Assembly: GCA_003226295.1 (NCBI GenBank)
Contig: CP029803.1
Coordinates: 736,211 to 800,210 of the forward strand
DNA from: Candidatus Moanibacter tarae
GTDB taxonomy: Bacteria > Verrucomicrobiota > Verrucomicrobiia > Opitutales > UBA2987
Reading direction: 5' to 3'
DNA length: 64,000 nucleotides
The notes beneath the pieces were generated by a model that saw nothing but the letters and a program-made list of their open reading frames with translations, did no database searches and was not told the DNA's origin. Position 1 is the first letter of the stretch. Each line of letters begins with the position of its first letter. Positions 8,308 to 63,921 of this stretch are shown in pieces. The position numbers and the translations under genes are program-made.

Positions 8308-9363
8308 ATGCCAAAAGATAAGATTAGAATTGGTGTCATAGGAGCTGGCGGAATTTTCCGTACCCGTCACTTCCCTGGCCTGGCCAAGGTTAAAGACGCT
8401 GAGGTTGTTGCAATCTGCAATCGATCAGTTGCGAGTGGCCGAAAAATTTCAAAGGAATTTGGGATCGAACCCGATCTCATGACCGATCCTTATGCCCTAA
8501 TCGCACGCGATGACATTGATGCAGTGATGATTGGGACTTGGCCCTATAAGCACTGCGAGTATGTATTAAAGTCACTCGATGCTGGTAAACATACTTGGGT
8601 CCAGGCACGGATGGCTATGAATTTGAGAGAAGCCCGTGAGATGTACTCTAAGTCAGAGGAAACCGGTCTTGCTGCTCAGATTTGTCAACCCCCTCATGCT
8701 ATGAAAGGCGACTACTACATGCGTCGTCTGATAGCTGATGGTTATGTTGGTGATATCACGAATATCGTTATTCGGTCCATGACTCCAGCCCTACTCAATC
8801 CAAGAACTCCACTGCATTGGCGACAAATCAGCCAATTATCTGGTCTAAATACGATGAGCGTCGGTATGCTTTATGAGTTTGTTAATCGGTGGTGTGGAGA
8901 CACTTCCTCTCTGACTGCCCAAGCTGTTACATTCACGAAACAACGTCCGGTCGGCCGAGAGAAAATGGGAGATGTTGATCGGCCTGACACGGTCAATATT
9001 CTTGCTGTCATGGAAAGTGGGGCGACTGCCGTCTACATGTTCTCGGGCGCTGCTCATCATGCGCCGAGTGAACGTATCGAGATCTATGGGAATGCAGGTA
9101 CTTTGGTTTACGAAACAGCCGTTAACCTCAATGACCAACGCATCCTCGGTGCCAAAGGAACGGGAAAAGAGCTTAAAGAACTTTCTGTTCCTCGAAAAGA
9201 CGCTTGCAGGTGGACCGTTGAGTCGGACTTTATCAATTCCATCAAGACCGGTGAGCTTGCCGAATCGACCTTTTATCAGGGTGTCAAGTACATGGAATTC
9301 ACCGAGGCTGTTTTTCGTTCGGTGGAACGCGGTCAGACCGTGAATTTTCCAGTTGTCGACTAA
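8308..9363 (+). CDS. Gfo/Idh/MocA family oxidoreductase
   Basis: N-terminal Rossmann motif IRIGVIGAGGIF. 351 aa, typical for the family. GAGGA upstream of the ATG. Confidence 0.85.
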   Translation: MPKDKIRIGVIGAGGIFRTRHFPGLAKVKDAEVVAICNRSVASGRKISKEFGIEPDLMTDPYALIARDDIDAVMIGTWPYKHCEYVLKSLDAGKHTWVQARMAMNLREAREMYSKSEETGLAAQICQPPHAMKGDYYMRRLIADGYVGDITNIVIRSMTPALLNPRTPLHWRQISQLSGLNTMSVGMLYEFVNRWCGDTSSLTAQAVTFTKQRPVGREKMGDVDRPDTVNILAVMESGATAVYMFSGAAHHAPSERIEIYGNAGTLVYETAVNLNDQRILGAKGTGKELKELSVPRKDACRWTVESDFINSIKTGELAESTFYQGVKYMEFTEAVFRSVERGQTVNFPVVD

Positions 9364-9603: not shown

Positions 9604-10425
9604 ATGGAGCAAACTGCAAGGCCCATAAGTATAGAGGATGAAAGTTTCTTTCACCGCGAGGGCTATTTGGTTATTCCCAGCTTTTTAAATACAGAGTTCA
9701 ACTCTTGTTTGCGAGCAGACGTTGACCAGCTGATGATAGACCGGGCAGATGGAAGTGAACGCCTACTGGTTGCCTATCCTGATCTCGGATTACTTACTTC
9801 CCATCCAGCTTTGACAGATATTCTCCAGATATTAATGGGCCCACGTTTTGCCATGCATCACATTCACGCGGTACGCCAGGACGCCGGAGCTCAGGGTGTG
9901 TATTGGCATCAGGACTATGAACAGTTGCCCCAAACGAATCGATCTCATTTGATGGTGCATGTGTTTTACTACCTCAATGGTCTTAATGGCGAAGTTGGTG
10001 ATTTATTGGTCCTACCGCGTTCGCAGGATCGAATTGTGGCTAGGGATGCAATGATGTCTTTTGGCACCGAGGATCTTCCCGGTTCGTTGTGTTTTGACGA
10101 TTTATCTCCTGGTAGTGCCGTTATTGTGCATTCGGCCCTTTGGCATGCTCGTCGCCCCAAGCCAGGTGGAGAGAACGAGTCTCGCTATTTCATCGATGTT
10201 TCCTATTGCCAAAATGGTGTTCTGTGGCCCAGTTACGGAAAGAGGCAGGCGGAGATTAACCGGACCGCCTTAGCCCAAGGGTTGGGACGTAATGGTCGTT
10301 ACGATTTCCTCTATGATAGCAGCCAGTTCTTTGACCAAGATGCTTTAACTGAGGATTTCGATCAAACTAACAAAGGAAGCATCGTTCTGCAAATGAAGGG
10401 AATATCTATGGGGGATCAGGGTTGA
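9604..10425 (+). CDS. PhyH family Fe(II)/2-oxoglutarate dioxygenase
   Basis: FHREGYLVIP N-terminal motif, YWHQDY (HxD) and HSALWHARRP (distal His). GGAGGG Shine-Dalgarno sequence upstream. Confidence 0.8.
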   Translation: MEQTARPISIEDESFFHREGYLVIPSFLNTEFNSCLRADVDQLMIDRADGSERLLVAYPDLGLLTSHPALTDILQILMGPRFAMHHIHAVRQDAGAQGVYWHQDYEQLPQTNRSHLMVHVFYYLNGLNGEVGDLLVLPRSQDRIVARDAMMSFGTEDLPGSLCFDDLSPGSAVIVHSALWHARRPKPGGENESRYFIDVSYCQNGVLWPSYGKRQAEINRTALAQGLGRNGRYDFLYDSSQFFDQDALTEDFDQTNKGSIVLQMKGISMGDQG

Positions 10426-25977: not shown

Positions 25978-27198
25978 ATGGTGTCTATCGAACGCGATAA
26001 ATTTCTCAAAGAGGGCTACTTGATTGTTAAGGGAGTCATTCCGTATAATAGACTCGAATTCGTCAAAAAGGCATACGAATCGCTCGTCGATCGGCAGAGG
26101 AAAATCTGGAAGGAACAGCGTAAAGATGGGGATCCTTCTGGTGGGGAATGGGAAACTAGTCCCCAACCGCGCTTACTCTTGCAGCGGCCGCCATTAGGTC
26201 GTCAGATTGGTCCGGAAGAGGCCCCCGCTGTTAATGTTTGGTTGGAAGAGAAGATCCGCGGAATCAGTATTGAACTTCTTAAAGAGCCTAGGGCGGCTGT
26301 TACTGAAATGATGATGATGTGTAGTCCCGTAAGGGACTACGGTCCGGCACCGTGGCATCGCGATATTCATCCTATCGATACTGCTCCCCTTCAGGGCTAC
26401 ATAGACGATATTATTGAGGGTGGTCCACGCTACATTCAATGGAACATTCCTCTCTATGATGATAGTGTTTTGTGGGTTGTTCCCGGCAGTCATTTAAGGA
26501 CAAACACAGTAGAAGAGAATGTAAGTCTTTTGAATGATCCTCGTCGACCCTTGCCTGGAGGAGTGCAGACATTTCTCGAGGCAGGTGACGGCGTTGTCTA
26601 CATTACTCCGATCCTGCATTGGGGCAGCAATTACAGTTCAAAATTTCGTCGAACTATTCATGGAGGTTTTTCTGCTTATCATTGTTTTCCTGATCTCTCA
26701 TTTATCGAACACCTCGACTCCGAATCCAAACATGTCTTCGACCATTGGAATCGGCAATCTGACGATATGAAGGCGCATACGGAATCAGCGTTGCGGGCCG
26801 TAATTGACGCGAACGGAGCCGCATACAACAAAGCCTTAGAAAGGCTTCATCCGAAACGGGGTGAAAAGGGTAAGCTTCTAACCACTGTGTTCCTATCCAA
26901 AGCTGCTCTTTCAATACGACTCGGAAAAGATCCTCCCTATCCTAGTATTTCAGAAGATCTTTTGAACTGCGTCCGGAACCCTCACTACACAACTCTTAAC
27001 TGGGGGCCTGAATTTTCTAATCGATTTTCAAAATCGGAAGCTGAATTACTTTGGCATCGCTTCAAGCCTCTCGATACTTTGCTTCAAACGGATAAAGAAC
27101 AGTTTCAGCCAGGTTTTCAATCTGGGCCTATGAAGTATTACTTCAATGATATGCCGTCAAATTACACCACAACAAAATTTATCGCGAGTTGGTCCTGA
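25978..27198 (+). CDS. PhyH-like Fe(II)/2-oxoglutarate dioxygenase with a ~130-aa C-terminal extension
   Basis: FLKEGYLIVKGVIP N-terminal motif, PWHRDIHP (HxD) and ILHWGSNY (distal His). 406 aa. Confidence 0.7.
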   Translation: MVSIERDKFLKEGYLIVKGVIPYNRLEFVKKAYESLVDRQRKIWKEQRKDGDPSGGEWETSPQPRLLLQRPPLGRQIGPEEAPAVNVWLEEKIRGISIELLKEPRAAVTEMMMMCSPVRDYGPAPWHRDIHPIDTAPLQGYIDDIIEGGPRYIQWNIPLYDDSVLWVVPGSHLRTNTVEENVSLLNDPRRPLPGGVQTFLEAGDGVVYITPILHWGSNYSSKFRRTIHGGFSAYHCFPDLSFIEHLDSESKHVFDHWNRQSDDMKAHTESALRAVIDANGAAYNKALERLHPKRGEKGKLLTTVFLSKAALSIRLGKDPPYPSISEDLLNCVRNPHYTTLNWGPEFSNRFSKSEAELLWHRFKPLDTLLQTDKEQFQPGFQSGPMKYYFNDMPSNYTTTKFIASWS

Positions 27199-27383: not shown

Positions 27384-28478
27384 TCAGTTAATCACGATTT
27401 TCTCATTTGATTTTGCACTATCATAGAGTGCATCAAGTATCCGCATAAAGGTATAGGCTTCCTCAGCATTTACTTCTGGCAATACTTCTCCAGCAATAGC
27501 CATTGCGAAATGTTCAATCTCGTAATAGAAGGGCGAAGCTCCAGCCGGGGCGGTAGTGTGAGGGATGTCATATTCCTCAGTAATCTCCTCACGTTCGTAG
27601 CCGTTTTCGGTTAGTCTAAAAATCGCTTGGTTAGGTTTTTCGTCGGCATTTTGGTTGATGAGACCACAACGTTCGTTTCCTGCAACTGCTCCTTCTTCCC
27701 CGTGCAATTCACAGATTCGGGGCGAGTCGGAGTGGGAAGAGTTTGTTACGTCAATCTGAATGGTTGCTCCCTCGGCGAAACCAATAATGCCGCTAAAGTA
27801 ATCTTCCGATGGGCCTTCCGGCCCATTATAAATTGGGTGAATATTATGTTTGGTGGCGAACGCCCATTCTGGAGCCGGGGAACCCATCCACCACCAGAGA
27901 AGATTGAGGTCGTGAGACATATGTTGCGCTAGTACGCCTCCTTTCATGCCGTAAATCAGAAGCCATCGGTCAGCATCAGCGTGTGAATGAACCGGGCGGG
28001 CATTTTTACTGAAGTAACGGCCATGATACGGCCGACCAATCTTACCTGATTTTATTGCCGCTCGCACGGAACGGTTTTGTGGATAGTGCCTCAGGTAATA
28101 AGAGAATTGGATTACCTTTTTGGCACGTTGGGCTGCGGCTTCCATCTTGAGGATTTCTGGTGCTCTAATAGCATGTGGTTTTTGAACCATCACGTGCTTG
28201 CCGGCCGAAAGGCTGTCAATTACCATTTTTAGCCGTATATTAGGTGGTACACCGAGATAGACGGCTTCGATTGTTTTATCTTCGAGAAGCTCTCGATAGT
28301 CGTGATAAGCCTTCGGAATTGAGAATTCGTCAATTACAGGTTGAAGGCGATCTGTATTGAGGTCTGCCATTGCTACTGAATTAATTCGAGAGGGTAGTTG
28401 CGAGGCGGAGAGGGCTGCTTGGCGGCCAGTAAACCCGGCACCAATGATTCCAAGACGGATGGGATGGAAGTTACGCAT
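27384..28478 (-). CDS. Gfo/Idh/MocA family oxidoreductase
   Basis: IRLGIIGAGFTGRQ Rossmann motif and VQKP motif. Confidence 0.85.
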   Translation of the reverse strand: MRNFHPIRLGIIGAGFTGRQAALSASQLPSRINSVAMADLNTDRLQPVIDEFSIPKAYHDYRELLEDKTIEAVYLGVPPNIRLKMVIDSLSAGKHVMVQKPHAIRAPEILKMEAAAQRAKKVIQFSYYLRHYPQNRSVRAAIKSGKIGRPYHGRYFSKNARPVHSHADADRWLLIYGMKGGVLAQHMSHDLNLLWWWMGSPAPEWAFATKHNIHPIYNGPEGPSEDYFSGIIGFAEGATIQIDVTNSSHSDSPRICELHGEEGAVAGNERCGLINQNADEKPNQAIFRLTENGYEREEITEEYDIPHTTAPAGASPFYYEIEHFAMAIAGEVLPEVNAEEAYTFMRILDALYDSAKSNEKIVIN

Positions 28479-31666: not shown

Positions 31667-32764
31667 TCATCTGAACCAATCATAGTGGAGCCCCAGGCCT
31701 CGGTTTTGAAGGGGCAGATCTATGCGATTTCCGCCTTGAGTAGAAGATTCCTTAAGTGCGAGTTCTACTTCGATTGCGATTCCGACACGGCGCCCAGAAT
31801 TTTTAGGTTCGTCGAGTTCCCCGGCTAAACACCGAAGTAGGTCGTCGAGACAATAAACAGCGCCGTAGGGAACATTGAAGTTCGGCTTCGGCCAAGGAAG
31901 TTGTGCTCTACCTTGAGTGTTGTTATCCGTTTCGACATCCTTCCACAATCTCCAACCATTTTCAAAATCAAATACCAATTCACCTGTATCGCCTGTAATC
32001 CTGACGCCGCTAGAACCTTTTCGGAAATGAACTGCAAAGTCATTGCTCCAAGCAAATCCTTGGCCAACGAATTCATTGCTGCCGCTCTCTCGGCGATGTT
32101 CATCGCCGATTCCAACCACCCATTCGGGCAATTTATCTAGGAAGTATGACCAGTTCTGGTGTTGTGCAAAAACGTTGCCAGTTTCGATGGACAACAATTT
32201 TCCAATATGACCGTTACGAAGAAGTCTCTTTGCTATTTCGAAGGAGGCGTGGGTAGTGCTGATGGAGCCACAACTCAGCGGAACGCAGGCTTCTGAGCAG
32301 GTATTAACCATTCGGTCGACTTCCTCTAGAGTGTGGGCCATGGGCTTCTCGGTCATGATGGCTTTAGCTCCGCATTCGACTGCCAAACACGTCAAGTCTG
32401 CTCGATGCTTAGTGTTTGTTGCCACCGCGACAATTTCCGGATTGAGCTCCTTTAGCATTTGCTCGGCATCAGTGTAAGTGGCGTCTATTCCATATCGTTG
32501 GTTGAAAATCTTGAGTCGTTTTGGATCCCTATCGGCGGCGCTTATGAGCTCTACTTTAGGGCAATTGTGGAGGGCATCGCAATATGAGGTTGGATTTCCT
32601 TCTCTATTGGGACGAATGCGGTGATGGGTGTGTCGGTGGATATCGAGAGTAGGGGTCGGGCGATTGACATCATCTATATGAAAGCGCTTTTTTGAGCGCG
32701 GAGCCAAATCGTATAGCATTCCCATCCAGCCGAGTCCGATAACGGCGGCGCGATATTTTTTCAT
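31667..32764 (-). CDS. Gfo/Idh/MocA family oxidoreductase with a ~45-aa insertion after the first Rossmann strand
   Basis: YRAAVIGLGWMG and TEKPMAHTLEEVDRM motifs. The start lies only 8 nt after the stop of the upstream 973-aa gene. Confidence 0.8.
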   Translation of the reverse strand: MKKYRAAVIGLGWMGMLYDLAPRSKKRFHIDDVNRPTPTLDIHRHTHHRIRPNREGNPTSYCDALHNCPKVELISAADRDPKRLKIFNQRYGIDATYTDAEQMLKELNPEIVAVATNTKHRADLTCLAVECGAKAIMTEKPMAHTLEEVDRMVNTCSEACVPLSCGSISTTHASFEIAKRLLRNGHIGKLLSIETGNVFAQHQNWSYFLDKLPEWVVGIGDEHRRESGSNEFVGQGFAWSNDFAVHFRKGSSGVRITGDTGELVFDFENGWRLWKDVETDNNTQGRAQLPWPKPNFNVPYGAVYCLDDLLRCLAGELDEPKNSGRRVGIAIEVELALKESSTQGGNRIDLPLQNRGLGLHYDWFR

Positions 32765-32772
32765 TTTAGGTT

Positions 32773-35694
32773 TTATCTTTGCGAGTTATTTGAATGTTCA
32801 TATCTGTCTATGTTAAACGAATCAGCAATTTTGGTGACGATTGCCTGTTCGATTCGAAATCTACGATTTCCTGTAGCATACGCCCCAAGGCCCTTGGAAG
32901 GCTCATCTTTCCCTCGGCCAATTTTGCCCCCAACGGATACACCACTTGGAAGCTTGAAAGAGTAATGATATGGGTTGTTAGTTGTTTCGGGAGAAATGGT
33001 TCTCGTTTTAGGTGTTGATTCGTTAATTGGTGATACCTCATAAAGTTCACCTGCCTTGGTCTCAAAAAGGAGAATTTCTCCTTCGAGATTGTCTGTTGGG
33101 GTTTTTCTTCCCGGATTTTTACCCTTTGATACTCGACACGGTTTATTCCATGGGTTGCGTAGTCGGCAAGTCTCGCCGAAACGGGACTCAATCTGAACGA
33201 ATTCAATCACGCCTCCACGGATTGATGACGTAACTAGGAATCCTCCCCTGGCGAGTAAGCTAAAGGAAGCGTCCCATTCCTGTGGCCATGCAGGAAAGAT
33301 ATTAATAATCTCAGGTTCCCCTGGTGTCGGTGAGATACTTTGCATTAGGCCAATCTGAAGGGTCATTGTAATCAAGCCAGAATGCTCAAGGCCCATTGAC
33401 TGTATACCCTGTTCGAATGCACTGAGTCCGTTAGCGAGGTGCGGCCTGTAAACGTAAAAATTAGCTGCAAGGATCGCGGGTAAATCCTCTCCACGTCCGG
33501 CCATGGCAAAGGCAATCGGCGTACGGACTAGAGATGGAAGCCAATGTCTCCCAGACATAATCTTCAGGTGATTGGGACATAAGTCTATGAGAAGTTGTAC
33601 AATCCTATCTTTGTCCGGATCGTTGTTCTCCATAGTCCATGCCTCAAAGGTCTCAATCGGATGGGCCCATATGTCTTCATATGGGTAATGGCGGCTGTTG
33701 ATATTAACTCCGTCAAAGTGCCCAGCTGCCCAAACGTTTTCATTCAGTGTTCCCCAAGTGAGTGCTTTCGATTCCGTCTCGTGGCCCATTGGGAATGGTG
33801 CTAGGTTATCGATTATGTCCTGCCATTCAGAACGCAGATCTGCGTCCTCGTTAAGAATTATAGAAGCTCGTATTGCGGGCGGAAAAGTGCCGCGTATCGC
33901 AGCTAAATCCTTGAGGCTGTCTTTCACGAGAAAGAAAGATTCCATAACATTGGTACCTTCTAAATGATACAGTCCATCTGTTCCTTTTTTTATCAGGTGC
34001 CGATAAAATTCAACTGTCCCACGAAGAAGAGGATAGGCCTTATAACGAAGCCAGTGGGTGTTCCCAGTGCAACGGTAACGCCACCAGGCCTGGAGAGCAA
34101 TCTTGCTCCCAGTAGAAGCAATATGGCCAATGGAACAATATGGATTTGTCCCAGGGAATTCACTATCGCGATGGTGTTTGCAGATATTGTGGAGGTGTGA
34201 ATCGTGCTGACAAAGGGCTAAGGTCGGAGGAGATAAGGTGTCGCTTTTGGTACGACCGAGGAAGTAATTCCGGAACTCTTCGCTGTTTTCATTGGGGAGG
34301 AGGGTAGGTCCATCAACTGGAGAAGTCTCAGGAAAATATGCTCCCCCAGCGACCCCCCAACGCTGTTGGGCTGCCTTTTCGCAGAGAGGTAATTGCTTTA
34401 CGTACATATTAAAATATGGATCTGTAATGTCCATTGCGTCGGCGGCAAAAAGAGGGCGGTACATCGACTCGACGATCCAATGCCAGAGTTGTGTACCGAG
34501 ATGTGGAATGTCACCCTCAGTTTGAAAAATCAAACCAGCGCCCTGAGGAACAGGCACATCGCCGCGGGATGAAGATGCTGAGTAGTAGAGATGTAATACC
34601 CGAATTCGTTCCATGAAATCAGCTAAGCCATCTTGGCTTGTCATATGGACAAATGTACGGGACCAGAAATTATGCCACCACCTAGTATGCTCAACACGAA
34701 GGGATTTATAGGAACGTTTCTTTGTGTTATGGAGCTCTAACAGGCAACGTTTACTGAGAGCGTCTTCCTTTCTGTTTGAGGCTGTGGTTGAAACAAGGAT
34801 AGTCCTTTTCCCCTGGCCTGAGGCTGCTATTATGGAACGGGCCTGAGGTATACCCTCAGTAATTATTTTACGTTGAAATTTGGCATGAAGAGGTTTCTCA
34901 TCCCATTGCAAATCATCCGATTGCCAGGTTGCTTTTTCAGGGTTTTCGATTCGTGTTTTACCTCCTCCTACGTGGAGGGCAACTGCAGATCCCCCGTTGT
35001 ACTCTTCATTTCGAAACTTCCGAGTCTCATGAAAATTTTGTTCTACTAGGATTATGTCTTCCAATTCTCTGAATTGGTAGCGTGCAGTGTGAGTTCCTGT
35101 ATCAATTTCTTCGGACACCCAAGTGTTTGAAGGCCAAAGATAAAGCGGTGTTATCACTTTCGGTGGCCGCCACATCGATATTGTGACCGTAATATCCTTG
35201 GGTATTGACCGCTGATCTTCGACTTCTAGGACTAAGACGTCTCGTTCCGAGGAAACAAAGCATTGGACACGAACATCGCCACATTCGATTGTGCAATTGG
35301 CGTCGTAGATGGAAAGGCGTTGGCAAAAGGATTTTGCTTTATTGAAAATCGATTCACCGAAATCAACTTCAAGGCGGGAACATGGACCTCTATAGTCAAC
35401 CGGACATCCGTGGGATCCTGCATGATTTCTGTCTGAAGAAAAGAGATCGTTACGGTTAATTTGGAATCGGATGGATCTTGGCGTAGTCCAAACCGTTGTT
35501 CCCATGCAGCCGTTGCCAATAGGGGTTCCTTCGATGGATACCTCTGCAGGGCTGTTGTAGATTACGTCGGCCCGTGAGACTAATTTTCTGTAGTCTACAT
35601 CGAACAGATTCGATTTTTTCATCCTCCGGGTATCTTGATGTCCGATACATTGTGAGTCGAGTTTAGAGAACTGAAAACCAAAAAAAATTGCCAT
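32773..35694 (-). CDS. Large glycoside-hydrolase-like protein (GH95-like / DUF5703-like N-terminal domain plus alpha/alpha-toroid-like region)
   Basis: 973 aa. The N-terminal EGTPIGNGCMGTTVWT resembles the P-x-G-N-G-x-x-G motif at the start of GH95-type enzymes. An alternative start (MKKSNLF) is at 35622. The family assignment is by eye only. Confidence 0.6.
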   Translation of the reverse strand: MAIFFGFQFSKLDSQCIGHQDTRRMKKSNLFDVDYRKLVSRADVIYNSPAEVSIEGTPIGNGCMGTTVWTTPRSIRFQINRNDLFSSDRNHAGSHGCPVDYRGPCSRLEVDFGESIFNKAKSFCQRLSIYDANCTIECGDVRVQCFVSSERDVLVLEVEDQRSIPKDITVTISMWRPPKVITPLYLWPSNTWVSEEIDTGTHTARYQFRELEDIILVEQNFHETRKFRNEEYNGGSAVALHVGGGKTRIENPEKATWQSDDLQWDEKPLHAKFQRKIITEGIPQARSIIAASGQGKRTILVSTTASNRKEDALSKRCLLELHNTKKRSYKSLRVEHTRWWHNFWSRTFVHMTSQDGLADFMERIRVLHLYYSASSSRGDVPVPQGAGLIFQTEGDIPHLGTQLWHWIVESMYRPLFAADAMDITDPYFNMYVKQLPLCEKAAQQRWGVAGGAYFPETSPVDGPTLLPNENSEEFRNYFLGRTKSDTLSPPTLALCQHDSHLHNICKHHRDSEFPGTNPYCSIGHIASTGSKIALQAWWRYRCTGNTHWLRYKAYPLLRGTVEFYRHLIKKGTDGLYHLEGTNVMESFFLVKDSLKDLAAIRGTFPPAIRASIILNEDADLRSEWQDIIDNLAPFPMGHETESKALTWGTLNENVWAAGHFDGVNINSRHYPYEDIWAHPIETFEAWTMENNDPDKDRIVQLLIDLCPNHLKIMSGRHWLPSLVRTPIAFAMAGRGEDLPAILAANFYVYRPHLANGLSAFEQGIQSMGLEHSGLITMTLQIGLMQSISPTPGEPEIINIFPAWPQEWDASFSLLARGGFLVTSSIRGGVIEFVQIESRFGETCRLRNPWNKPCRVSKGKNPGRKTPTDNLEGEILLFETKAGELYEVSPINESTPKTRTISPETTNNPYHYSFKLPSGVSVGGKIGRGKDEPSKGLGAYATGNRRFRIEQAIVTKIADSFNIDRYEHSNNSQR

Positions 35695-48831: not shown

Positions 48832-49830
48832 TTAGAAATTCACCTTCCAGTTAGTTCGTGATGAATTTTTAAGTACCTCGGGATTTACAAGGTTCTTGGG
48901 TGGTTCGCCTCGAAAGACACAGAGGATATTTTGGGCGGCAGCGATGGAGGTCCGTACGAGGGCCTCACTAGTTTGGCCGGCAACGTGAGGAGAACACATG
49001 AGGTTGTCTAGCTTAAGGAGAGAATAATCTTCCGGTACTGGTTCCTGTTCGAAAACATCCAAGGCTGCCCCTCCTATTTTTCGATGATGGAGAGAATAGA
49101 AAAGTGCTTTTTCATCAATGAGGCCACCTCGGGCAGTATTCACAAGGAAGGCCGTGGGTTTCATGAGATCTAATTCAGTTTTTCCAATAAGGTTCCGAGT
49201 TTCAGAGTTAAGGGGAGTGTGCAGCGAGATGAAGTCAGACTTCTGGAGCAATTTTTCAAAAGATACAAGGCTTACATCAACTTCATCAATAGCGCATCTG
49301 TTGGGATAGGGATCATATGCAAGTACTTCCATTCCAAACCCAAGGGCGTGTTTAGCTAGGCGGGATCCGATTCGACCTAGGCCAATGATACCAAGAGTTT
49401 TTTGATAGAGCTCAAACCCTACAATATTATCACGCTTCCAGATGCCGGACTTGACTTCGTTAGCGGCACGGGTGAGGTGACGGGCGAGAGAAATCAATTG
49501 AGCAAAAGCATATTCGCTTACTGCCTCCGAATTAGCGTCGCCGGTAGTGGTAACCGCAATGCCCAGCTTGGTGCACTCGTCGATGGCGACATTGTCGTAA
49601 CCAACGCCATGGCGAGAGACAATCTTGAGTTTTGGAGATGCCGTTAACACCTCTTTATTTATCTGGGTAACACGTGCCAAGATAGCCGCGACATCTTTTG
49701 ATGAGTCGATAACTTTCTCAGGCCTCGAGTATGATTGAAGGACTGTAAGTTCAATCCCGTTGTCTTGAAGAAGATCGAGGCCTTCTGCGCGGACGTTGTG
49801 GTCGGGGACAAGGACTTTGTGTTTAAACAT
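48832..49830 (-). CDS. D-isomer-specific 2-hydroxyacid dehydrogenase (glycerate/phosphoglycerate dehydrogenase-like)
   Basis: GIIGLGRIGSRLA NAD motif and the NTARG / DVFEQEP / SPHVAG Arg-Glu-His catalytic pattern. Confidence 0.9.
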   Translation of the reverse strand: MFKHKVLVPDHNVRAEGLDLLQDNGIELTVLQSYSRPEKVIDSSKDVAAILARVTQINKEVLTASPKLKIVSRHGVGYDNVAIDECTKLGIAVTTTGDANSEAVSEYAFAQLISLARHLTRAANEVKSGIWKRDNIVGFELYQKTLGIIGLGRIGSRLAKHALGFGMEVLAYDPYPNRCAIDEVDVSLVSFEKLLQKSDFISLHTPLNSETRNLIGKTELDLMKPTAFLVNTARGGLIDEKALFYSLHHRKIGGAALDVFEQEPVPEDYSLLKLDNLMCSPHVAGQTSEALVRTSIAAAQNILCVFRGEPPKNLVNPEVLKNSSRTNWKVNF

Positions 49831-51857: not shown

Positions 51858-52148
51858 TTCGTTGAGATTTCCTTCCGAGGTAGAAATATGGATAATTGCT
51901 AGCAAATAAAAGCATTGTAGCGAAAAGAAACAGGTACCTGTAGGAGATTAACTAAAATATTTAAGAATAGAACGGAGGATTAGAACGCATGAATTTCCAT
52001 GTGGTTCGCTTAGGCCGTTATCCGATGCAAAAATATTTTCGTTGCTTGGTACAATTCAACTTCAATCATTTGCTACAGGCTGTTAAACTTAGTGTAACGA
52101 TAAGTCTTTGTACTTAGGAAATTTGTTAAAATCTGGAATAGGAAAGTC

Positions 52149-53168
52149 ATGAAACACAAGCCAATCGAAAATCGAAGTTTACGCGTGGGCGTTTACGGAA
52201 CGGGGAACTTTGCCAATCAGCAACATCTTCCAAATTTGAGTAAGCTGGAAAATGTCGATTTAGTAGCAGCCGCTGATATCAATAAAGATGCTCTGAAGTC
52301 GACTGCTGAAAAATTTGGTATCACTCATACTTACGAAGATGCCTACGAGATGCTGGCAAAGGAGGATCTGGATATTCTCTATTCAATTGTTCCCGCATTT
52401 GTCCGAACAGATGTGGAAGCGACTGCTGCGGCCAAAGGCATTCATCTTTTCAGCGAGAAGCCGCAGGCTCTGACAATGGCGGTAGCTCGTCGAATTGCTG
52501 ATGCGGTAGACGAAGGTTCCGTCTTTAGTTCGGTTTGTTTCCGAGAGCGGTATCGTCCCATTTTCATGGAAGCCAAAAGACTATTGGAGGGAAAGAATGT
52601 GATTCATATTCGCTTTCAAAGTTGGAGAGATCTTGTCCCTAAAAAAGAAGAAATGGGTGAGGGTTGGTCCAACAATGTCGATTTGGGTGGGAGTGCAGCT
52701 TTTGACTGGGGTGTGCATGCAGTGGATTATTCACGATACATGAGTGGTCACGATATTGTTCGAGCTCAGGGATTTGTTCACCATCCCAAGGAATTTGCGC
52801 TTCCCTTGTCGAACAGCTACAATTTCGTCCTAGATAGCGGTGCCACTCTTCATGTTAGTTTTGTTTCAGCTGGGGATATGCCTACCCATCAGCCCTATTT
52901 CCTGATTTTCTACGAAGGTGGATATCTTGGGGTTCACGGATACGACTTTATCGAAATGAACGGAGAGAGGGTCTACACAGCAGAGGAATACAATCCATGG
53001 TTCGAACTTGACCGGCGCTTTATTGAAGCGGTTAGGCAGGGTGACGACAGCGATCTTTTGAATGATTACCGGGATGGATTGCTTTCGCTGGGTCCGGTAC
53101 TGGCGGCGTGGGAATCTACCCGCCAAAAGGGTGAGATGATCGATGTAGTTAAATTCATGGAGAACTGA
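52149..53168 (+). CDS. Gfo/Idh/MocA family oxidoreductase
   Basis: LRVGVYGTGNFA Rossmann motif and SEKPQALT motif. Its stop TGA lies 6 nt before the next ATG. Confidence 0.85.
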   Translation: MKHKPIENRSLRVGVYGTGNFANQQHLPNLSKLENVDLVAAADINKDALKSTAEKFGITHTYEDAYEMLAKEDLDILYSIVPAFVRTDVEATAAAKGIHLFSEKPQALTMAVARRIADAVDEGSVFSSVCFRERYRPIFMEAKRLLEGKNVIHIRFQSWRDLVPKKEEMGEGWSNNVDLGGSAAFDWGVHAVDYSRYMSGHDIVRAQGFVHHPKEFALPLSNSYNFVLDSGATLHVSFVSAGDMPTHQPYFLIFYEGGYLGVHGYDFIEMNGERVYTAEEYNPWFELDRRFIEAVRQGDDSDLLNDYRDGLLSLGPVLAAWESTRQKGEMIDVVKFMEN

Positions 53169-53174
53169 CCAAAG

Positions 53175-54017
53175 ATGAATAAACTCGAACTTACACCACA
53201 ACAACTATCCTTCATCGATGTTTTTGGATATTTGAAGTTTTCCGGTCTGCTTCTAGATCGAATTGATGAGATTATAGAAGCATTTGAGAGGGTTTGGGAA
53301 GAACGCGGTGGTGGCCATAATGGAAAGATCCACGATGGTACCGCGCGCTCGTGTATCGTGCCATTCATTGACCAAAGCGAATATCTCTCTTCGTTGCTGG
53401 ATGATCCACGAGTTAATGGAATCTTTTCTAGCCTCCTGGGAGAGGATTTTCAATATCTCGGTAGCGATGGAAACTACTACGTAGGGAATACCAGATGGCA
53501 TTCCGACGGCACTTGGCCGCGTCCCATTATCTACTACAAGATGGCGCTTTATCTTGATTTTCTCAATGGTGATTCTGGAGCACTTAGCGTGGTTCCTGGG
53601 AGTCATCGATATGGGGAAAACTACGCAGAGGAACTGGAACGGCAAATTCGCAAGCCTGAAGAGTTTTGGGGTATGGGTGGTGATGAAGTTCCGGCGATGG
53701 CTTTAGAGACAGTTCCGGGTGATGTAGTGATTTTTAATCAAGGAACTAAACACAGCTCGTGGGGAGGTGGAGACCGACGTAGGATGTTTACGATAAACTG
53801 CACTCTGCGTCATACAGATGAGCAAATACCATTGCTACGCCAAGAAGTGAGCGGATCCGCTCGATTTCTTGTGGATTCAGTCTATGGGGAAGCAATGCTT
53901 CAAAGCGCCGATTCGGCTCGTATGCGTCACCTGGAGCAAGGGTTGGCGAACCAAGATCACCTACCCGAGCTTGTACGAAGGGAAAGAGAGCAGCGTGACG
54001 AACCATCACGGGGCTAG
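53175..54017 (+). CDS. PhyH family Fe(II)/2-oxoglutarate dioxygenase
   Basis: FIDVFGYLKF N-terminal motif, RWHSDG (HxD) and GTKHSSWGG (distal His). Apparently co-transcribed with 52149..53168. Confidence 0.8.
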   Translation: MNKLELTPQQLSFIDVFGYLKFSGLLLDRIDEIIEAFERVWEERGGGHNGKIHDGTARSCIVPFIDQSEYLSSLLDDPRVNGIFSSLLGEDFQYLGSDGNYYVGNTRWHSDGTWPRPIIYYKMALYLDFLNGDSGALSVVPGSHRYGENYAEELERQIRKPEEFWGMGGDEVPAMALETVPGDVVIFNQGTKHSSWGGGDRRRMFTINCTLRHTDEQIPLLRQEVSGSARFLVDSVYGEAMLQSADSARMRHLEQGLANQDHLPELVRREREQRDEPSRG

Positions 54018-54038: not shown

Positions 54039-54096
54039 GGGTTCTTCAATACAAAATACAGTATCCCTATCTTATTCCACTTAGAATCCCTTAGGC

Positions 54097-55242
54097 TTAG
54101 ACCTCTTCTACAATAAGGGAGGCGAACTTTTCCTCGTCCCACTGCGCTCCCCACCCAGGAAGATTATTGGGAGCAATGTGGCCGTCCTTGATGATGGGGG
54201 CGTTGGTGAGACCCCAGAGAGCCCCTTGTTCCCGCAAGGCATCGGGGGATAGTGCCATGTATTCATAGAATTGAGTGTTTTCAATGCAGCATCCGAGCGT
54301 GGCGTGAACAAGGCCGGACAGACCTCCAACGCCATTGAGTTCGATTGTGCCACCATACAATTCGGCAAGATGGGCAAGCTTTAGGACATGGGTTGTTCCA
54401 GCTCTGGCGTTTCCTCGAAGAAGGTCAGTCCCACCCTGAATGAGCCATTGGGAAGTTATTCCGATATCGTTCATAAGCATCTCGGTACCCATCACCGGGA
54501 TGGTCAGTTCATCGCACAATTCCTGATAGAGATTGAGTTTGTACTCGTGCATGGGTTCCTCGAGCCAAACGAAATCCAAGTCTTCCATTACATGACCAAC
54601 CTCGATTGCTTCCCTTAGGTCGTAGGAGCAAACCGGATCGTTTAATAGATCGTAATCAGCACCAACAATTTCCCTCACCTTGGTGAAAATTGGGATATCT
54701 GCCTTGCCGCCTTTGTAAGTGTGGAATTTGTAGGCGTTTATTCCAAATGATTTCCCAATATCAATATGTTCCAGATATTGTTCTAGAGTAGAATCACCGG
54801 CAGTGAGATAGACCGGAAGACTCTCTCGAACTCTTCCCACCAAAGCGTGGACAGGAAGGTTAGCTGCTTTCCCAAGGATATCCCACAGGCAATTATCAAA
54901 AGCTCCGAACCATCCTGGCGGTTGGTAAACCCATCGCGTTCCTTTGTGCAACTTTTGCCAGATTGCCTCACGGTTAAAGACGTCCTCACCGATTACCTGA
55001 TTTTTGATTATGGACAATTGTGTTGGTGTTATTGAAATGTCTGTGGTGACGATGCTCTCGATTCCCTCGTCAGTGATGACTTTGAGGAAAGTGTTTCGGG
55101 TCTTAACAGTGCCTGATTGCTTCGCGCGCCCGTGGGTGTACTGGATGCGTCTTAGGTTGGGGATAGTAGTTAACTTCCACTCTCTAGCCGGGTGTTCATC
55201 GTCAAGTTCTAAGGTGATCAGTTTGATATCTGCTATCTTCAT
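54097..55242 (-). CDS. Enolase-superfamily enzyme (MR/MLE family), tandem copy A
   Basis: 381 aa. Motifs GWFGAFDNCLWDILGK, YKFH, LLNDPV, WLEEPM, MGTEM and GGTDLLRGNA. Identical to copy B except residues 2 and 19-21. Confidence 0.85.
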   Translation of the reverse strand: MKIADIKLITLELDDEHPAREWKLTTIPNLRRIQYTHGRAKQSGTVKTRNTFLKVITDEGIESIVTTDISITPTQLSIIKNQVIGEDVFNREAIWQKLHKGTRWVYQPPGWFGAFDNCLWDILGKAANLPVHALVGRVRESLPVYLTAGDSTLEQYLEHIDIGKSFGINAYKFHTYKGGKADIPIFTKVREIVGADYDLLNDPVCSYDLREAIEVGHVMEDLDFVWLEEPMHEYKLNLYQELCDELTIPVMGTEMLMNDIGITSQWLIQGGTDLLRGNARAGTTHVLKLAHLAELYGGTIELNGVGGLSGLVHATLGCCIENTQFYEYMALSPDALREQGALWGLTNAPIIKDGHIAPNNLPGWGAQWDEEKFASLIVEEV

Positions 55243-55297
55243 TTTATAACTTTTTGTAAGCTTCTTATTTCAGGGAGCGTCAATGAATCCCTTAGGC

Positions 55298-56443
55298 TTA
55301 GACCTCTTCTACAATAAGGGAGGCGAACTTTTCCTCGTCCCACTGCGCTCCCCACCCAGGAAGATTATTGGGAGCAATGTGGCCGTCCTTGATGATGGGG
55401 GCGTTGGTGAGACCCCAGAGAGCCCCTTGTTCCCGCAAGGCATCGGGGGATAGTGCCATGTATTCATAGAATTGAGTGTTTTCAATGCAGCATCCGAGCG
55501 TGGCGTGAACAAGGCCGGACAGACCTCCAACGCCATTGAGTTCGATTGTGCCACCATACAATTCGGCAAGATGGGCAAGCTTTAGGACATGGGTTGTTCC
55601 AGCTCTGGCGTTTCCTCGAAGAAGGTCAGTCCCACCCTGAATGAGCCATTGGGAAGTTATTCCGATATCGTTCATAAGCATCTCGGTACCCATCACCGGG
55701 ATGGTCAGTTCATCGCACAATTCCTGATAGAGATTGAGTTTGTACTCGTGCATGGGTTCCTCGAGCCAAACGAAATCCAAGTCTTCCATTACATGACCAA
55801 CCTCGATTGCTTCCCTTAGGTCGTAGGAGCAAACCGGATCGTTTAATAGATCGTAATCAGCACCAACAATTTCCCTCACCTTGGTGAAAATTGGGATATC
55901 TGCCTTGCCGCCTTTGTAAGTGTGGAATTTGTAGGCGTTTATTCCAAATGATTTCCCAATATCAATATGTTCCAGATATTGTTCTAGAGTAGAATCACCG
56001 GCAGTGAGATAGACCGGAAGACTCTCTCGAACTCTTCCCACCAAAGCGTGGACAGGAAGGTTAGCTGCTTTCCCAAGGATATCCCACAGGCAATTATCAA
56101 AAGCTCCGAACCATCCTGGCGGTTGGTAAACCCATCGCGTTCCTTTGTGCAACTTTTGCCAGATTGCCTCACGGTTAAAGACGTCCTCACCGATTACCTG
56201 ATTTTTGATTATGGACAATTGTGTTGGTGTTATTGAAATGTCTGTGGTGACGATGCTCTCGATTCCCTCGTCAGTGATGACTTTGAGGAAAGTGTTTCGG
56301 GTCTTAACAGTGCCTGATTGCTTCGCGCGCCCGTGGGTGTACTGGATGCGTCTTAGGTTGGGGATAGTAGTTAACTTCCACTGACTAACTGGGTGTTCAT
56401 CGTCAAGTTCTAAGGTGATCAGTTTGATATCTGCTATCCTCAT
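55298..56443 (-). CDS. Enolase-superfamily enzyme (MR/MLE family), tandem copy B
   Basis: Same motifs as copy A. Differs by K2R and A19V/R20S/E21Q. Confidence 0.85.
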   Translation of the reverse strand: MRIADIKLITLELDDEHPVSQWKLTTIPNLRRIQYTHGRAKQSGTVKTRNTFLKVITDEGIESIVTTDISITPTQLSIIKNQVIGEDVFNREAIWQKLHKGTRWVYQPPGWFGAFDNCLWDILGKAANLPVHALVGRVRESLPVYLTAGDSTLEQYLEHIDIGKSFGINAYKFHTYKGGKADIPIFTKVREIVGADYDLLNDPVCSYDLREAIEVGHVMEDLDFVWLEEPMHEYKLNLYQELCDELTIPVMGTEMLMNDIGITSQWLIQGGTDLLRGNARAGTTHVLKLAHLAELYGGTIELNGVGGLSGLVHATLGCCIENTQFYEYMALSPDALREQGALWGLTNAPIIKDGHIAPNNLPGWGAQWDEEKFASLIVEEV

Positions 56444-56685
56444 TTTATAACCTTTTGTAAGCTTCTTATTTCAGGGAACGTCAATTATTGCAGTCTGGAA
56501 CAGTTTGAAATTGCAATAGAAAACTTTGAAAATAGAAATTAAGAAGGAGCTTTTGCTTAAGGATAGTTTTGGTTTCAAGCCCTCTATTTCTTAATAACGA
56601 CCATTAGTTAGAAATTTAAAGACGTGGGAGATGGCCCCGTGTAGAAAAAGAACCAGGTGAAGACCAAGAATAATCATTTACAGTA

Positions 56686-57723
56686 CTAGTCGCAGTTAAC
56701 TTCGGTTTTGGGTGATAAAATCTCGTCACCGTAAGCAAAAAGAGCAGGGGTCCCCCCTGTATGCACAAACACCACTGTTTGATCCTTGGTCCAACGCTTT
56801 TGTCTTATGTGTTCGATCATGGCTCCAAAAGCTTTACCGGTGTAGACGGGATCTAGGAGCAGTCCTTCCGTTCGTGCCATTAAAAGAACAGCGTCTCGGC
56901 CCCGTTCTGTTACGGTCCCATAGGCTTCGCCAGCGTAGTTTCCATGGCACTCAAAATCAGCCGGATTAATTTGCAGCGAAAGATCAAGCATGAGAGCAAC
57001 CTTTTTAGCCACACAGGCTAGTTCCCTGCTGGATTCTTCATTTTCTCGTGGCATTGGCTTAATTCCGATGACTTCTACTGGAATCCCAAGCGCGCGAGCT
57101 CCAATTACAAGGCCGACATGGGTATGGACTCCAGAACAGACATACAATGCGGCAGGATGAATGTCTTGGTCCTGGAGTTGCTTTGACAACTCCAGGAAAC
57201 CATCCACATAGGCGATGCTCCGTAAAAGATAGCCGTCAGTGCTAGTGTTGTAAACACGATGTCCTTCTTTCCTCAGGCGGTTAATGATCTCAATTTTTTC
57301 TCCAGGATTATCGGTAAGGTAAATGTCGGCGCCAAATATATGAGACAGAAGAAGGTTCCCGGTAATGGGTTCAGAATGATCGTCGCGTTGTCCAACCATG
57401 ACAGCTTTTTTCCCCAAGCGAGCCGCTACCGCTGCGGTGACGCGTGATTGATTAGATTGGGATGCTGCACCATGAAGAAGGATATCATAATTCCCTTCGA
57501 CGGCAGGGGCTAGGGAGTATTCAAACTCACGAATTTTATTCCCACCAAATGCAATGCCGGTTTGATCTTCACGCTTGATGAGAATGCGAGGGCCATCCAG
57601 TTCTTTAGACAATCTCGGGCAGTCGAACAAAGGGGTGGGAAGATCAGCCAATGAGAGACGACTGAAACTGTCGAGCCGAGATTTAAGATCTTTTCTTGTG
57701 ATGGAATTCTTTTGGTTAAACAC
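56686..57723 (-). CDS. PLP-dependent enzyme of the ACC deaminase / D-cysteine desulfhydrase family
   Basis: GTG start. DLPTPL, and the KREDQTGIAFGGNKIREFEY motif carrying the PLP lysine (GGNK). 345 aa. Confidence 0.85.
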   Translation of the reverse strand: MFNQKNSITRKDLKSRLDSFSRLSLADLPTPLFDCPRLSKELDGPRILIKREDQTGIAFGGNKIREFEYSLAPAVEGNYDILLHGAASQSNQSRVTAAVAARLGKKAVMVGQRDDHSEPITGNLLLSHIFGADIYLTDNPGEKIEIINRLRKEGHRVYNTSTDGYLLRSIAYVDGFLELSKQLQDQDIHPAALYVCSGVHTHVGLVIGARALGIPVEVIGIKPMPRENEESSRELACVAKKVALMLDLSLQINPADFECHGNYAGEAYGTVTERGRDAVLLMARTEGLLLDPVYTGKAFGAMIEHIRQKRWTKDQTVVFVHTGGTPALFAYGDEILSPKTEVNCD

Positions 57724-62769: not shown

Positions 62770-63921
62770 GTGCCGAAGTACCGTACCGCAATTATAGCAA
62801 CAGGAATTATTGCGCGCGTTCATGCTCGTGGGTGGCTCGGGGTGCCGGAACGGCCAGTAGAGATTGCTACGATTGCCGATACTAATGCAGAGGCACTTCG
62901 GGAATTTGGTGACTTTTTCGAGGTTCGGGAAGATAAACGCTACAAGGACTATCGGGAGATGCTGGATGTAGAGAGGCCGGACTTTGTCGATGTCTGTTCT
63001 TGGCACCAATTACACGCAGAAATGGTAATCGCTGCCGCGGCTCGACGGCCCCGAGCGATTATTTGTCAGAAGCCTATGGCAGTAGATTTAAGAGAGGCAA
63101 ATGAGATGATGGTTGCCTGTGAGCGCAATCAGGTTCGGTTGGTCATCGCTTACCAGAGGCCACATCATGCTGTGTGGCTCAAGGCTAGGGAACTTCTGCG
63201 AGATGGAATCATTGGGAAAATCAATAGAATTGAGGTCGACGCCTCCGGAAATATGCTGAATACGAATTCACACAATATTCGGCTTGCGCTATTCCTCATG
63301 GATGAGCCTCAGGTCGAATGGGTGATGGGAACCGTGGAACGCATCACTGATTTGGTTGAGAGAGGTTTGCCAGCAGAAGATGCTTCCCTCGGGATAGCGG
63401 CTTGTAGTAACGGTGCTTCAATCCTGATTCACGGAAACCTTATTAAAGGTATTGGGCAAGGATGTCGCGTTTTTGGAACTGACGGGCTTATGGAATTAAG
63501 TACCTCATACCATCCGAATTCAAAGATTCCTTCTGATGCCCCTATGTATATGCCAGAAATGCCATCTGCCCGTTATAATTTTGAAATTGGAAAGGCGTGT
63601 TACATGAACGCCGCTTCGAATGGGTGGCGAGAGATTGAAGCGCCTTGGCACGATTGTTGGGCCCATCAATGCCAGGAGACAATCGATTGGGTTGAAAACA
63701 AGGTCGAAGAGCCAATCAGTAGCGGGGATCGGGGCCGATCGGTGCAGGAGGTTATGATGGCTCTTTATGAGTCTACGCGAAAAAGACAAAGGATTTACTT
63801 GCCGCTCAAGACGTTGATTAATCCTTTGAGGCTTATGGTGGAAAGTGGTGATCTTTCCGTAGAGTGGCCGGGGCTTCACGAAATACGGTCCGGGATTTTA
63901 CGGGGTGAAGACATGAAATAA
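62770..63921 (+). CDS. Gfo/Idh/MocA family oxidoreductase
   Basis: GTG start with AGGAGG 8 nt upstream. YRTAIIATGIIA and CQKPMAVDLREANEM motifs. Confidence 0.85.
   Translation: MPKYRTAIIATGIIARVHARGWLGVPERPVEIATIADTNAEALREFGDFFEVREDKRYKDYREMLDVERPDFVDVCSWHQLHAEMVIAAAARRPRAIICQKPMAVDLREANEMMVACERNQVRLVIAYQRPHHAVWLKARELLRDGIIGKINRIEVDASGNMLNTNSHNIRLALFLMDEPQVEWVMGTVERITDLVERGLPAEDASLGIAACSNGASILIHGNLIKGIGQGCRVFGTDGLMELSTSYHPNSKIPSDAPMYMPEMPSARYNFEIGKACYMNAASNGWREIEAPWHDCWAHQCQETIDWVENKVEEPISSGDRGRSVQEVMMALYESTRKRQRIYLPLKTLINPLRLMVESGDLSVEWPGLHEIRSGILRGEDMK

Follow-up and report, generated by a model that had tools for sequence, protein, structure and literature searches.

In Poribacteria, more than 1.9% of the genes carry the PF05721 (PhyH) domain, these genes fall into 193 clusters at 60% identity, and their functions are mostly unknown (Kamke et al. 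2014, PMC3909097). A comparable expansion is encountered in a 64,000-nucleotide stretch of the Candidatus (Ca.) Moanabacter tarae genome (positions 736,211 to 800,210 of contig CP029803.1; hereafter the window), and the present analysis concerns two co-directional genes at 52149..54017 of this window, the first encoding an NAD(P)-dependent oxidoreductase of the Gfo/Idh/MocA family (GFO; the gene is called GFO52149 after its position) and the second a PhyH-family Fe(II)/2-oxoglutarate (2OG) dioxygenase (PhyH53175). As in Poribacteria, the PhyH genes are many and highly diverged, and orthologs of both GFO52149 and PhyH53175 occur in Poribacteria, Latescibacterota and Gemmatimonadota, however, the expansion in the window belongs to a free-living member of the Opitutae and reaches a local extreme of 6 in ~50 genes. 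The paper on Poribacteria (PMC3909097) describes no pairing of PhyH with Gfo/Idh/MocA genes, the sole functional link that it gives being PhnY-PhnZ, and Landry 2017 mentions PhyH only as putative α-oxidation.

A precedent for a 2OG dioxygenase followed by a reductase is offered by kanamycin biosynthesis, where KanJ/KanK, as far as the pathway is summarized in PMC5533434 (citing Sucipto et al. 2012), combine an Fe/2OG dioxygenase with an NADPH-dependent reductase acting after it. The likeness lies in the chemistry, i.e., a PhyH-fold dioxygenase turns a sugar substituent into a ketone and an NAD(P)H enzyme follows, as that summary has it for KanJ/KanK and as we propose for the pair in the window, and KanJ is among the structural neighbours of the PhyH53175 model. 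On the other hand, KanJ shows no significant sequence similarity to PhyH53175 in a profile search, and KanJ/KanK serve the biosynthesis of an antibiotic, whereas the setting of the window pair is catabolic and its partner enzyme varies across genomes.

Two further systems invite comparison. Families present in the window match components of non-phosphorylative sugar-acid pathways (XylDh Gfo6, ManD/GalD and GarL/HpaI) at the family level, but none of these proteins attains an equivalog cut-off. The described oxidative sugar-acid pathways are not known to include an Fe/2OG dioxygenase step. The ectoine hydroxylase EctD, the best match to PhyH53175 among solved structures in sequence-profile searches, has the same HxD...H triad and the PhyH fold that is predicted for PhyH53175, and acts on a small, polar substrate, however, the match is weak and partial (E = 4e-6), no NCBIfam EctD match was obtained, and no ect genes are found in the window. 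A literature search returned no pathway that unites PhyH with Gfo/Idh/MocA enzymes, and no NCBIfam equivalog was reached by any of the six genes in the three PhyH/GFO neighbour pairs of the window; the original prediction, made from the sequence alone, had also assigned the unit to none of the described pathways.

Ca. Moanabacter tarae is a marine member of the Opitutae whose genome, a 2.6-Mb contig with a GC content of 46%, derives from a Tara Oceans sample (PMC6256433); the GC content of the window is 46.1%. A Pfam analysis of all ~50 window genes, listed from ATG starts only, identified six PhyH genes (3301-, 9604+, 23349+, 25978+, 37672+ and 53175+, the sign giving the strand), eight GFO genes (8308+, 13897-, 27384-, 31667-, 41595-, 42791-, 52149+ and 62959+) and nine MR_MLE genes of the enolase superfamily. 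The region is an island built from massively expanded families, and the crowding of MR_MLE, GFO and PhyH genes (9/8/6 of ~50) is extreme for one window. With slightly more confidence than doubt, we interpret 52149..54017 as a probable bicistron within a paralog-rich, lineage-specific catabolic island, in which a PhyH oxygenase and an NAD(P)-oxidoreductase are loosely associated and exchange partners.

The physical arrangement of the two genes is operon-like. GFO52149 ends with TGA (53166-53168) and PhyH53175 begins after a spacer of six nucleotides, as had been read from the sequence before, and all coordinates and family assignments given earlier for this pair (pair 1) and for two further PhyH/GFO neighbour pairs (pairs 2 and 3; Table 1) proved correct when compared with the open reading frames (ORFs) and Pfam matches. 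The gap of 6 nt is the shortest among the 27 co-directional junctions in the window, which have a median gap of 206 nt and fall below 60 nt in only five cases; since most spacers are ~200 nt long, the window genes appear to be largely monocistronic. Neither a promoter-like nor a terminator-like site is predicted at the pair-1 junction, where the scan counts do not exceed those in shuffled sequence. Because of the short gap, the Shine-Dalgarno-like motif ahead of PhyH53175 and the lack of a predicted promoter or terminator between the genes, which share a strand, the earlier suggestion of co-transcription is plausible, and 52149..54017 is probably transcribed as a bicistron.

Both proteins are clear members of their superfamilies. 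GFO52149 exceeds the Pfam gathering cut-offs for the N-terminal, NAD(P)-binding Rossmann domain PF01408 (62.8 bits; cut-off 24) and for the C-terminal alpha/beta substrate-binding domain PF22725 (31.5 bits; cut-off 27), and G17 and G19 of the G-x-G-x-x-A motif, E103-K104-P105 and H190 are invariant among 16 orthologs. PhyH53175 likewise exceeds the cut-off for PF05721 (35.6 bits; cut-off 22), and the 2-His-1-carboxylate facial triad H109-x-D111...H193 together with R202/R203 is invariant among 14 orthologs from several phyla, where R202/R203 would supply the basic residue that binds the 2OG C5 carboxylate. With these motifs intact, both proteins look catalytically competent. Neither belongs to a characterized subfamily: the nearest solved structures to GFO52149 are those of DgpA and of inositol or aldose dehydrogenases (E values of 1e-16 to 1e-12), and its best NCBIfam score is 75 bits, to be compared with cut-offs of 350-750 for IolG, levoglucosan dehydrogenase, Gfo6 xylose dehydrogenase and the glycoside 3-dehydrogenases. 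The structural model of PhyH53175, based on a 14-sequence alignment, is of low confidence (mean predicted local distance difference test, pLDDT, 60.6; predicted template modelling score, pTM, 0.63). At the top of its Foldseek results stand PhyH-type oxygenases only, among them SnoK, HygX, EvdO1, proline hydroxylase and KanJ, with template modelling (TM) scores of ~0.5-0.65, which places this low-confidence model tentatively in the double-stranded beta-helix class and among small-molecule and sugar-modifying 2OG oxygenases.

The association between the two families was analyzed across genomes around orthologs of each gene, by comparing densities in the first kilobase with those in the flanks (in the GFO-centred test, flanks at 1-6 kb, binomial p and loci dereplicated at 90% identity). 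In 12 of 83 loci containing a GFO52149 ortholog (48-77% identity) a PhyH gene is directly adjacent, in all cases co-directional and with gaps of -4 to 67 nt, nine of these genes being located downstream and three upstream. The PhyH genes found beside GFO52149 orthologs represent five further subfamilies with less than 40% mutual identity, and the window type constitutes a sixth. When the GFO proteins are arranged in a neighbour-joining tree, every PhyH type is confined to a separate GFO subclade; the window clade differs from its sister clade in the PhyH type that occupies the shared downstream position, and in one large clade no PhyH type is present. The density of PhyH genes is 0.092 per kb in the first kilobase compared with 0.036 per kb in the flanks, i.e., a 2.55-fold enrichment (p = 0.029), and 10 out of 10 dereplicated PhyH neighbours are on the same strand as the GFO gene. 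The neighbours of GFO52149 orthologs also include MatE (16 loci), 2-Hacid_dh (14 loci), Ldh_2, DHDPS, DAO and SDR genes.

The reciprocal analysis of PhyH53175 orthologs gave a GFO density of 0.074 per kb in the first kilobase compared with 0.027 per kb in the flanks (2.76-fold, p = 0.027). Three unrelated GFO subfamilies adjoin these orthologs: the window type in Opitutales; a second type in Caldilineaceae and 'Longimicrobiales', which is convergent with the PhyH gene at gaps of 91-413 nt; and a third type in freshwater Latescibacterota, which is co-directional and lies 8 nt (L066, L068) or 267 nt (L059) downstream. The Caldilineaceae and Latescibacterota types showed no significant similarity to each other. 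The GFO proteins beside PhyH53175 orthologs in other phyla were considered as possible orthologs of GFO52149 and rejected, being less than 30% identical to it. At 50 dereplicated loci, the Pfam families immediately next to the PhyH53175 ortholog are Amidohydro_2 (10), aldo-keto reductase (7), PhyH (7), GFO (7), MR_MLE (4), FmdA (4), luciferase-like (3) and SDR (2), and the NAD(P) partner of a PhyH enzyme may be a GFO protein, an aldo-keto reductase or an SDR protein. In these phyla there is a weak but reproducible tendency of GFO and PhyH genes to lie side by side, which we describe as a modest, facultative operonic association with partner swapping at the subfamily level, and not as a fixed two-enzyme unit.

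Conservation of the orthologous pair itself is confined to close relatives. The PhyH53175 orthogroup (53-79% identity) extends to Gemmatimonadota, Latescibacterota, Poribacteria, Caldilineaceae and other Chloroflexota, and Planctomycetota, and the GFO52149 orthogroup (48-90% identity overall) has members with 48-62% identity in Poribacteria, in Latescibacterota and in deep-sea metagenomes. Orthologs of both genes are found together in three relatives only. In an uncultured Opitutales metagenome-assembled genome (MAG; L001, 95-99% protein identity) the gap is again 6 nt, in a Ca. Moanabacter species (L002, 79-84% identity) it is 242 nt, and in a third relative (L081, 77% and 73% identity) a gene for a 128-aa glyoxalase-family protein is situated between the GFO and PhyH genes. 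In all three, the PhyH gene is followed by a convergent MR_MLE gene, and a gene for a 2-hydroxyacid dehydrogenase adjoins the block in L001 and L081. Elsewhere the partners are apart: one locus (L082) has a GFO52149 ortholog at 74% identity and no PhyH gene within 6 kb downstream, 78 of the 80 PhyH53175-ortholog loci contain no GFO52149 ortholog within 10 kb, the pair is missing from most of the 83 loci of the GFO set, and in neither set is it retained in distant lineages. Pair 1 is conserved within the Moanabacter clade, where it is likely a bicistron. Of the functional two-enzyme unit that had been proposed originally, a modest adjacency of families is supported, and a fixed unit is not.

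Judging by the families encoded, the local context of pair 1 resembles an oxidative sugar-acid route: a gene for an HpcH-type aldolase (47944), the D-2-hydroxyacid dehydrogenase gene at 48832, GFO52149 and the MR_MLE genes at 54097 and 55298 all lie within 8 kb. Genes of the 2-Hacid_dh, MR_MLE and HpcH aldolase families make up the conserved surroundings of the pair. The best NCBIfam similarities of the MR_MLE protein encoded at 54097 are to ManD and galactonate dehydratases, all of them below cut-off. An array around the PhyH53175 ortholog in Caldilineaceae comprises genes for a class-V aminotransferase, a homolog of a 621-aa protein encoded upstream of GFO52149 in the window, an SGSH-like sulfatase and a luciferase-like monooxygenase, followed by the PhyH ortholog and a convergent GFO gene; in marine Latescibacterota the PhyH ortholog is accompanied by genes for an amino-acid permease, an aminotransferase, amidases, an HpcH aldolase and a second PhyH protein. 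These contexts suggest an amino- or sulfo-substituted, sugar-like or amino-acid-like substrate. In the reaction sequence that we propose, the PhyH dioxygenase would oxidize an unactivated or heteroatom-adjacent C-H bond of a sugar-like, amino- or sulfo-substituted small molecule, giving an alcohol, or a carbonyl once the substituent is lost. The GFO protein would then interconvert the PhyH-derived alcohol and carbonyl with NAD(P)(H), and the product could feed the neighbouring sugar-acid route through the enolase-superfamily dehydratase, the HpcH-type aldolase and the 2-hydroxyacid dehydrogenase. We infer the order of these putative reactions, and the probable class of substrate, from gene context and by analogy with KanJ/KanK.

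The 621-aa protein merits attention in this respect. Pfam, NCBIfam and PDB searches with it were empty, and a single-sequence structure prediction reached a pLDDT of only 32. Its gene is located directly upstream of the GFO gene in L001 (~45 nt) and in L002, and homologs with 29-37% identity are encoded within 10 kb of PhyH53175 orthologs in Caldilineaceae (L058, L063, L064, L074), 'Longimicrobiales' (L067) and Gemmatimonadota (L014, L015), with the homolog in L058 and L067 lying between the class-V aminotransferase and the SGSH-like sulfatase. The protein may represent an undescribed enzyme family of the same pathway as PhyH53175, and the gap of only ~45 nt in L001 suggests a three-gene operon there. 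Compared with L001, the window contains an extra ~245 nt of AT-rich sequence (51865..52125, 35% GC) between the 621-aa gene and GFO52149; this extra sequence was considered as a repeat or mobile element, which was rejected as no second copy is present in the window or in the compared loci.

Several observations weigh against the interpretation of pair 1 as part of a loose, partner-swapping association. Bystander PhyH/GFO pairs (163 loci, query genes excluded) are adjacent 6 times where a random order of the genes in these loci would give 6.2 (1.0-fold), more than 80% of the orthologs of either gene lack an adjacent member of the other family, and the enrichments, with p values of only ~0.03, are based on 7-10 dereplicated events. 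Such islands are rich in NAD(P) oxidoreductases, and some adjacency between oxygenases and reductases is therefore to be expected anyway. Even in close relatives the two genes are spaced differently, by 6 nt, by 242 nt or by a whole gene, which indicates that no strong constraint acts on translational coupling. With respect to chemistry, the characterized homologs of both proteins found in PDB and NCBIfam searches are all too distant for an assignment, and since the mean pLDDT of the PhyH53175 model is 60.6, its fold neighbours reveal little about the substrate.

Several of these points are also what would be expected if the arrangement were purely an artefact of gene density, an account that we regard as rather unlikely, though one to be taken seriously. 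According to it, the two genes are neighbours only through family expansion, the short spacer reflects an arbitrary operon or genome compaction, and there is no common substrate. Within the window, PhyH/GFO neighbours do recur mainly as an effect of gene density. In 200,000 shuffles of the gene order, 1.92 PhyH/GFO adjacencies are expected and three are observed (P = 0.29); as random order at such a paralog density gives 1.92 adjacencies, recurrence in the window is nearly uninformative. PhyH/MR_MLE adjacencies behave alike (three observed, 2.16 expected), and the co-directional order GFO-then-PhyH, which alone is nominally unusual (observed twice with 0.4 expected, P = 0.049), was picked after viewing the data. 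The recurrence described in the original prediction is real as an arrangement, with the same gene order in pair 2 at a gap of 240 nt and a convergent third pair, and falls short of significance when paralog density is considered.

The other two pairs do not alter this picture. Pairs 1 and 2 are not recent duplicates of each other, as had been noted before: the identity is 21% over 121 aa between GFO52149 and GFO8308 and 25% over 170 aa (E = 0.005) between PhyH53175 and PhyH9604, and the partners in the two pairs are old paralogs. With 240 nt, the gap of pair 2 is typical of the window and gives no hint of co-transcription; within this spacer no promoter-like or terminator-like site stands out above shuffled sequences, and its RNA fold is no better than that of shuffles (z = +1.1). 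At the locus of a PhyH9604 ortholog with 74% identity, the downstream MFS-GH32 synteny is retained, and AhpC, glyoxalase and DUF2442 genes are found upstream in place of the GFO gene, a loss that again agrees with the density account. More remote PhyH9604 orthologs are flanked by MR_MLE, by an extended SDR whose start overlaps the PhyH stop, or by a classical SDR, and lack an upstream GFO gene in the other loci examined. In pair 3 the genes are convergent with a gap of 185 nt. The argument for a functional unit gains nothing from pair 2 or pair 3.

The density account gains further from the flanks of the orthologs, where the PhyH density itself amounts to 4-6% per kb, as well as from the bystander pairs and the 78 PhyH53175-ortholog loci without a GFO52149 ortholog. 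Against it stand the ~2.5-2.8-fold enrichment at the adjacent position in both reciprocal ortholog-centred tests, the co-directional placement of all 10 dereplicated PhyH neighbours of GFO52149 orthologs at gaps of -4 to 67 nt, and the emergence of the association in five further PhyH and three GFO subfamilies; in addition, the orthologous pair persists down to ~73-77% identity. Gene-neighbourhood statistics, which had been proposed as a check on the functional unit, gave a divided answer, with an enrichment around orthologs of either gene and none among bystander pairs.

A bolder version of our interpretation, which we consider distinctly unlikely in this full form, is that of a modular cassette in which one GFO orthogroup recruits interchangeable PhyH subfamilies (six types including that of the window) and one PhyH orthogroup recruits interchangeable NAD(P) oxidoreductases (three GFO types, aldo-keto reductases and SDRs). 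Such a cassette would amount to a combinatorial toolkit for hydroxylation or dealkylation followed by dehydrogenation or reduction, with which marine Verrucomicrobiota, Poribacteria, Latescibacterota, Gemmatimonadota and Caldilineaceae might attack substituted sugars or recalcitrant dissolved organic matter; a common class of substrate would be hinted at by the co-localized 621-aa protein, sulfatase and aminotransferase.

A dedicated two-enzyme module with fixed chemistry, e.g., a KanJ/KanK-like oxidative deamination or dealkylation of an amino or otherwise modified sugar followed by NAD(P)H-dependent reduction of the ketone by the GFO protein, perhaps within a complex, appears improbable. The 6-nt junction, the kanamycin precedent of a 2OG dioxygenase followed by an NADPH reductase as outlined in PMC5533434, the presence of the sugar-acting enzymes HygX, EvdO1, SnoK and KanJ among the Foldseek neighbours of the PhyH53175 model, and the aminotransferase and sulfatase genes near PhyH53175 orthologs in Caldilineaceae and Latescibacterota are all consistent with such a module. 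However, the pair is not conserved beyond the Moanabacter clade, and even close relatives have the partners split by a glyoxalase gene or a 242-nt spacer. Moreover, the PhyH53175 orthogroup pairs with unrelated GFO proteins, with aldo-keto reductases or with no oxidoreductase, the GFO52149 orthogroup also pairs with MatE, Ldh_2, DAO and SDR genes, and the likeness to KanJ is confined to the level of the fold (21% identity, Foldseek rank 50).

It is highly improbable that GFO52149 works with the MR_MLE dehydratase, the HpcH aldolase and the 2-hydroxyacid dehydrogenase in a non-phosphorylative sugar-acid pathway and that PhyH53175 is an unrelated, inserted passenger. Against this stand the place of the PhyH gene in every relative, flanked by the GFO gene on the same strand and by the MR_MLE gene, and the repeated recruitment of PhyH genes by GFO orthologs; in its favour, MR_MLE is kept around the block (L001, L002, L081) together with 2-Hacid_dh (L001, L081), 2-Hacid_dh recurs near GFO52149 orthologs (14 loci), and there are NCBIfam similarities below cut-off to sugar dehydrogenases, ManD/GalD dehydratases and keto-deoxy-sugar-acid aldolases.

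The loose association of an oxygenase with an exchangeable NAD(P)-oxidoreductase is the interpretation that we retain. If the two activities are coupled as proposed, pair 1 would provide a first functional handle on the nearly uncharacterized PhyH expansions of marine Verrucomicrobiota, Poribacteria, Latescibacterota and related uncultured heterotrophs, whose presumed role is the processing of complex or modified carbohydrates and of persistent dissolved organic matter. A concrete candidate for expression is offered by the 6-nt bicistron and the 621-aa gene. The main lesson is that repeated neighbouring of two massively expanded families in one window does not equal a functional unit.

Table 1 Coordinates of the PhyH/GFO pairs and of the genes around pair 1 in the window
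Feature	Position	Strand	Evidence
GFO52149, Gfo/Idh/MocA NAD(P)-dependent oxidoreductase, 339 aa, first gene of pair 1	52149..53168	+	PF01408 62.8 bits, PF22725 31.5 bits
Shine-Dalgarno-like GGAGA for PhyH53175, within the 3' end of GFO52149	53160..53164	+	Sequence; ends 10 nt before ATG 53175
Spacer CCAAAG, 6 nt, from GFO stop to PhyH start	53169..53174	+	Sequence
PhyH53175, PhyH-family Fe(II)/2OG dioxygenase, 280 aa, second gene of pair 1	53175..54017	+	PF05721 35.6 bits
GFO8308, GFO paralog, pair 2	8308..9363	+	PF01408, PF22725
PhyH9604, PhyH paralog, pair 2, 240 nt 3' of GFO8308	9604..10425	+	PF05721 37.5 bits; 100% identical to DF168_00678 of Ca. Moanabacter tarae
PhyH paralog, 406 aa, convergent pair 3	25978..27198	+	PF05721 28.2 bits
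GFO paralog, convergent pair 3	27384..28478	-	PF01408, PF02894, PF22725
D-2-hydroxyacid dehydrogenase, divergent neighbour	48832..49830	-	PF02826, PF00389
621-aa protein, co-directional, upstream of GFO52149	49992..51857	+	No Pfam, NCBIfam or PDB match
MR_MLE, enolase superfamily, acid-sugar-dehydratase-like, convergent with PhyH53175	54097..55242	-	PF13378, PF02746
MR_MLE, near-identical tandem copy	55298..56443	-	99% amino-acid identity to 54097..55242

Downstream of pair 1, the two MR_MLE genes are part of a tandem duplication in perfect register, consisting of 1201-nt units (54084..55284 and 55285..56485) with one gene each. The copies differ at few positions, and these are clustered at the 5' ends of the genes. 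A very recent duplication would account for the tandem, as would an artefact of assembly, which is conceivable because the source is a short-read metaSPAdes assembly (PMC6256433).

Other genes in the window encode a luciferase-like monooxygenase, ThuA, an aldo-keto reductase, GH32, a GH95-like protein and two MFS transporters. The GH95-like/DUF5703 protein (973 aa, 32773..35694) is encoded on the minus strand within 31667..35694 and is followed after 8 nt by the GFO gene at 31667..32764; the spacing at this junction is as operon-like as that of pair 1, and it ties a GFO paralog to a glycoside hydrolase. Two ORFs appear incomplete at their 5' ends: a PALP-domain ORF (56686..57399) aligns only to profile positions 91-295, and the last GFO ORF of the window (62959..63921) aligns to PF01408 only from position 57. 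Both are either N-terminally truncated or start at a non-ATG codon farther upstream, which is conceivable given that the gene list was restricted to ATG starts.

Signs of genetic exchange were noted in the compared loci. The GFO protein encoded beside the PhyH ortholog in L067 ('Longimicrobiales') is 87% identical to that of L074 (Caldilineaceae), and the entire array is syntenic, pointing either to recent horizontal transfer or to a MAG binning error. Toxin-antitoxin genes are inserted in the neighbourhoods of several relatives, i.e., DarT/NADAR in L067 (12119..13591), two PIN/PhdYeFM pairs in L164 (5087..6435) and YoeB/PhdYeFM in L081 (258..730), and transposases flank L083, L164 and L166. 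These inserts and flanking transposases suggest that the catabolic islands are prone to recombination.

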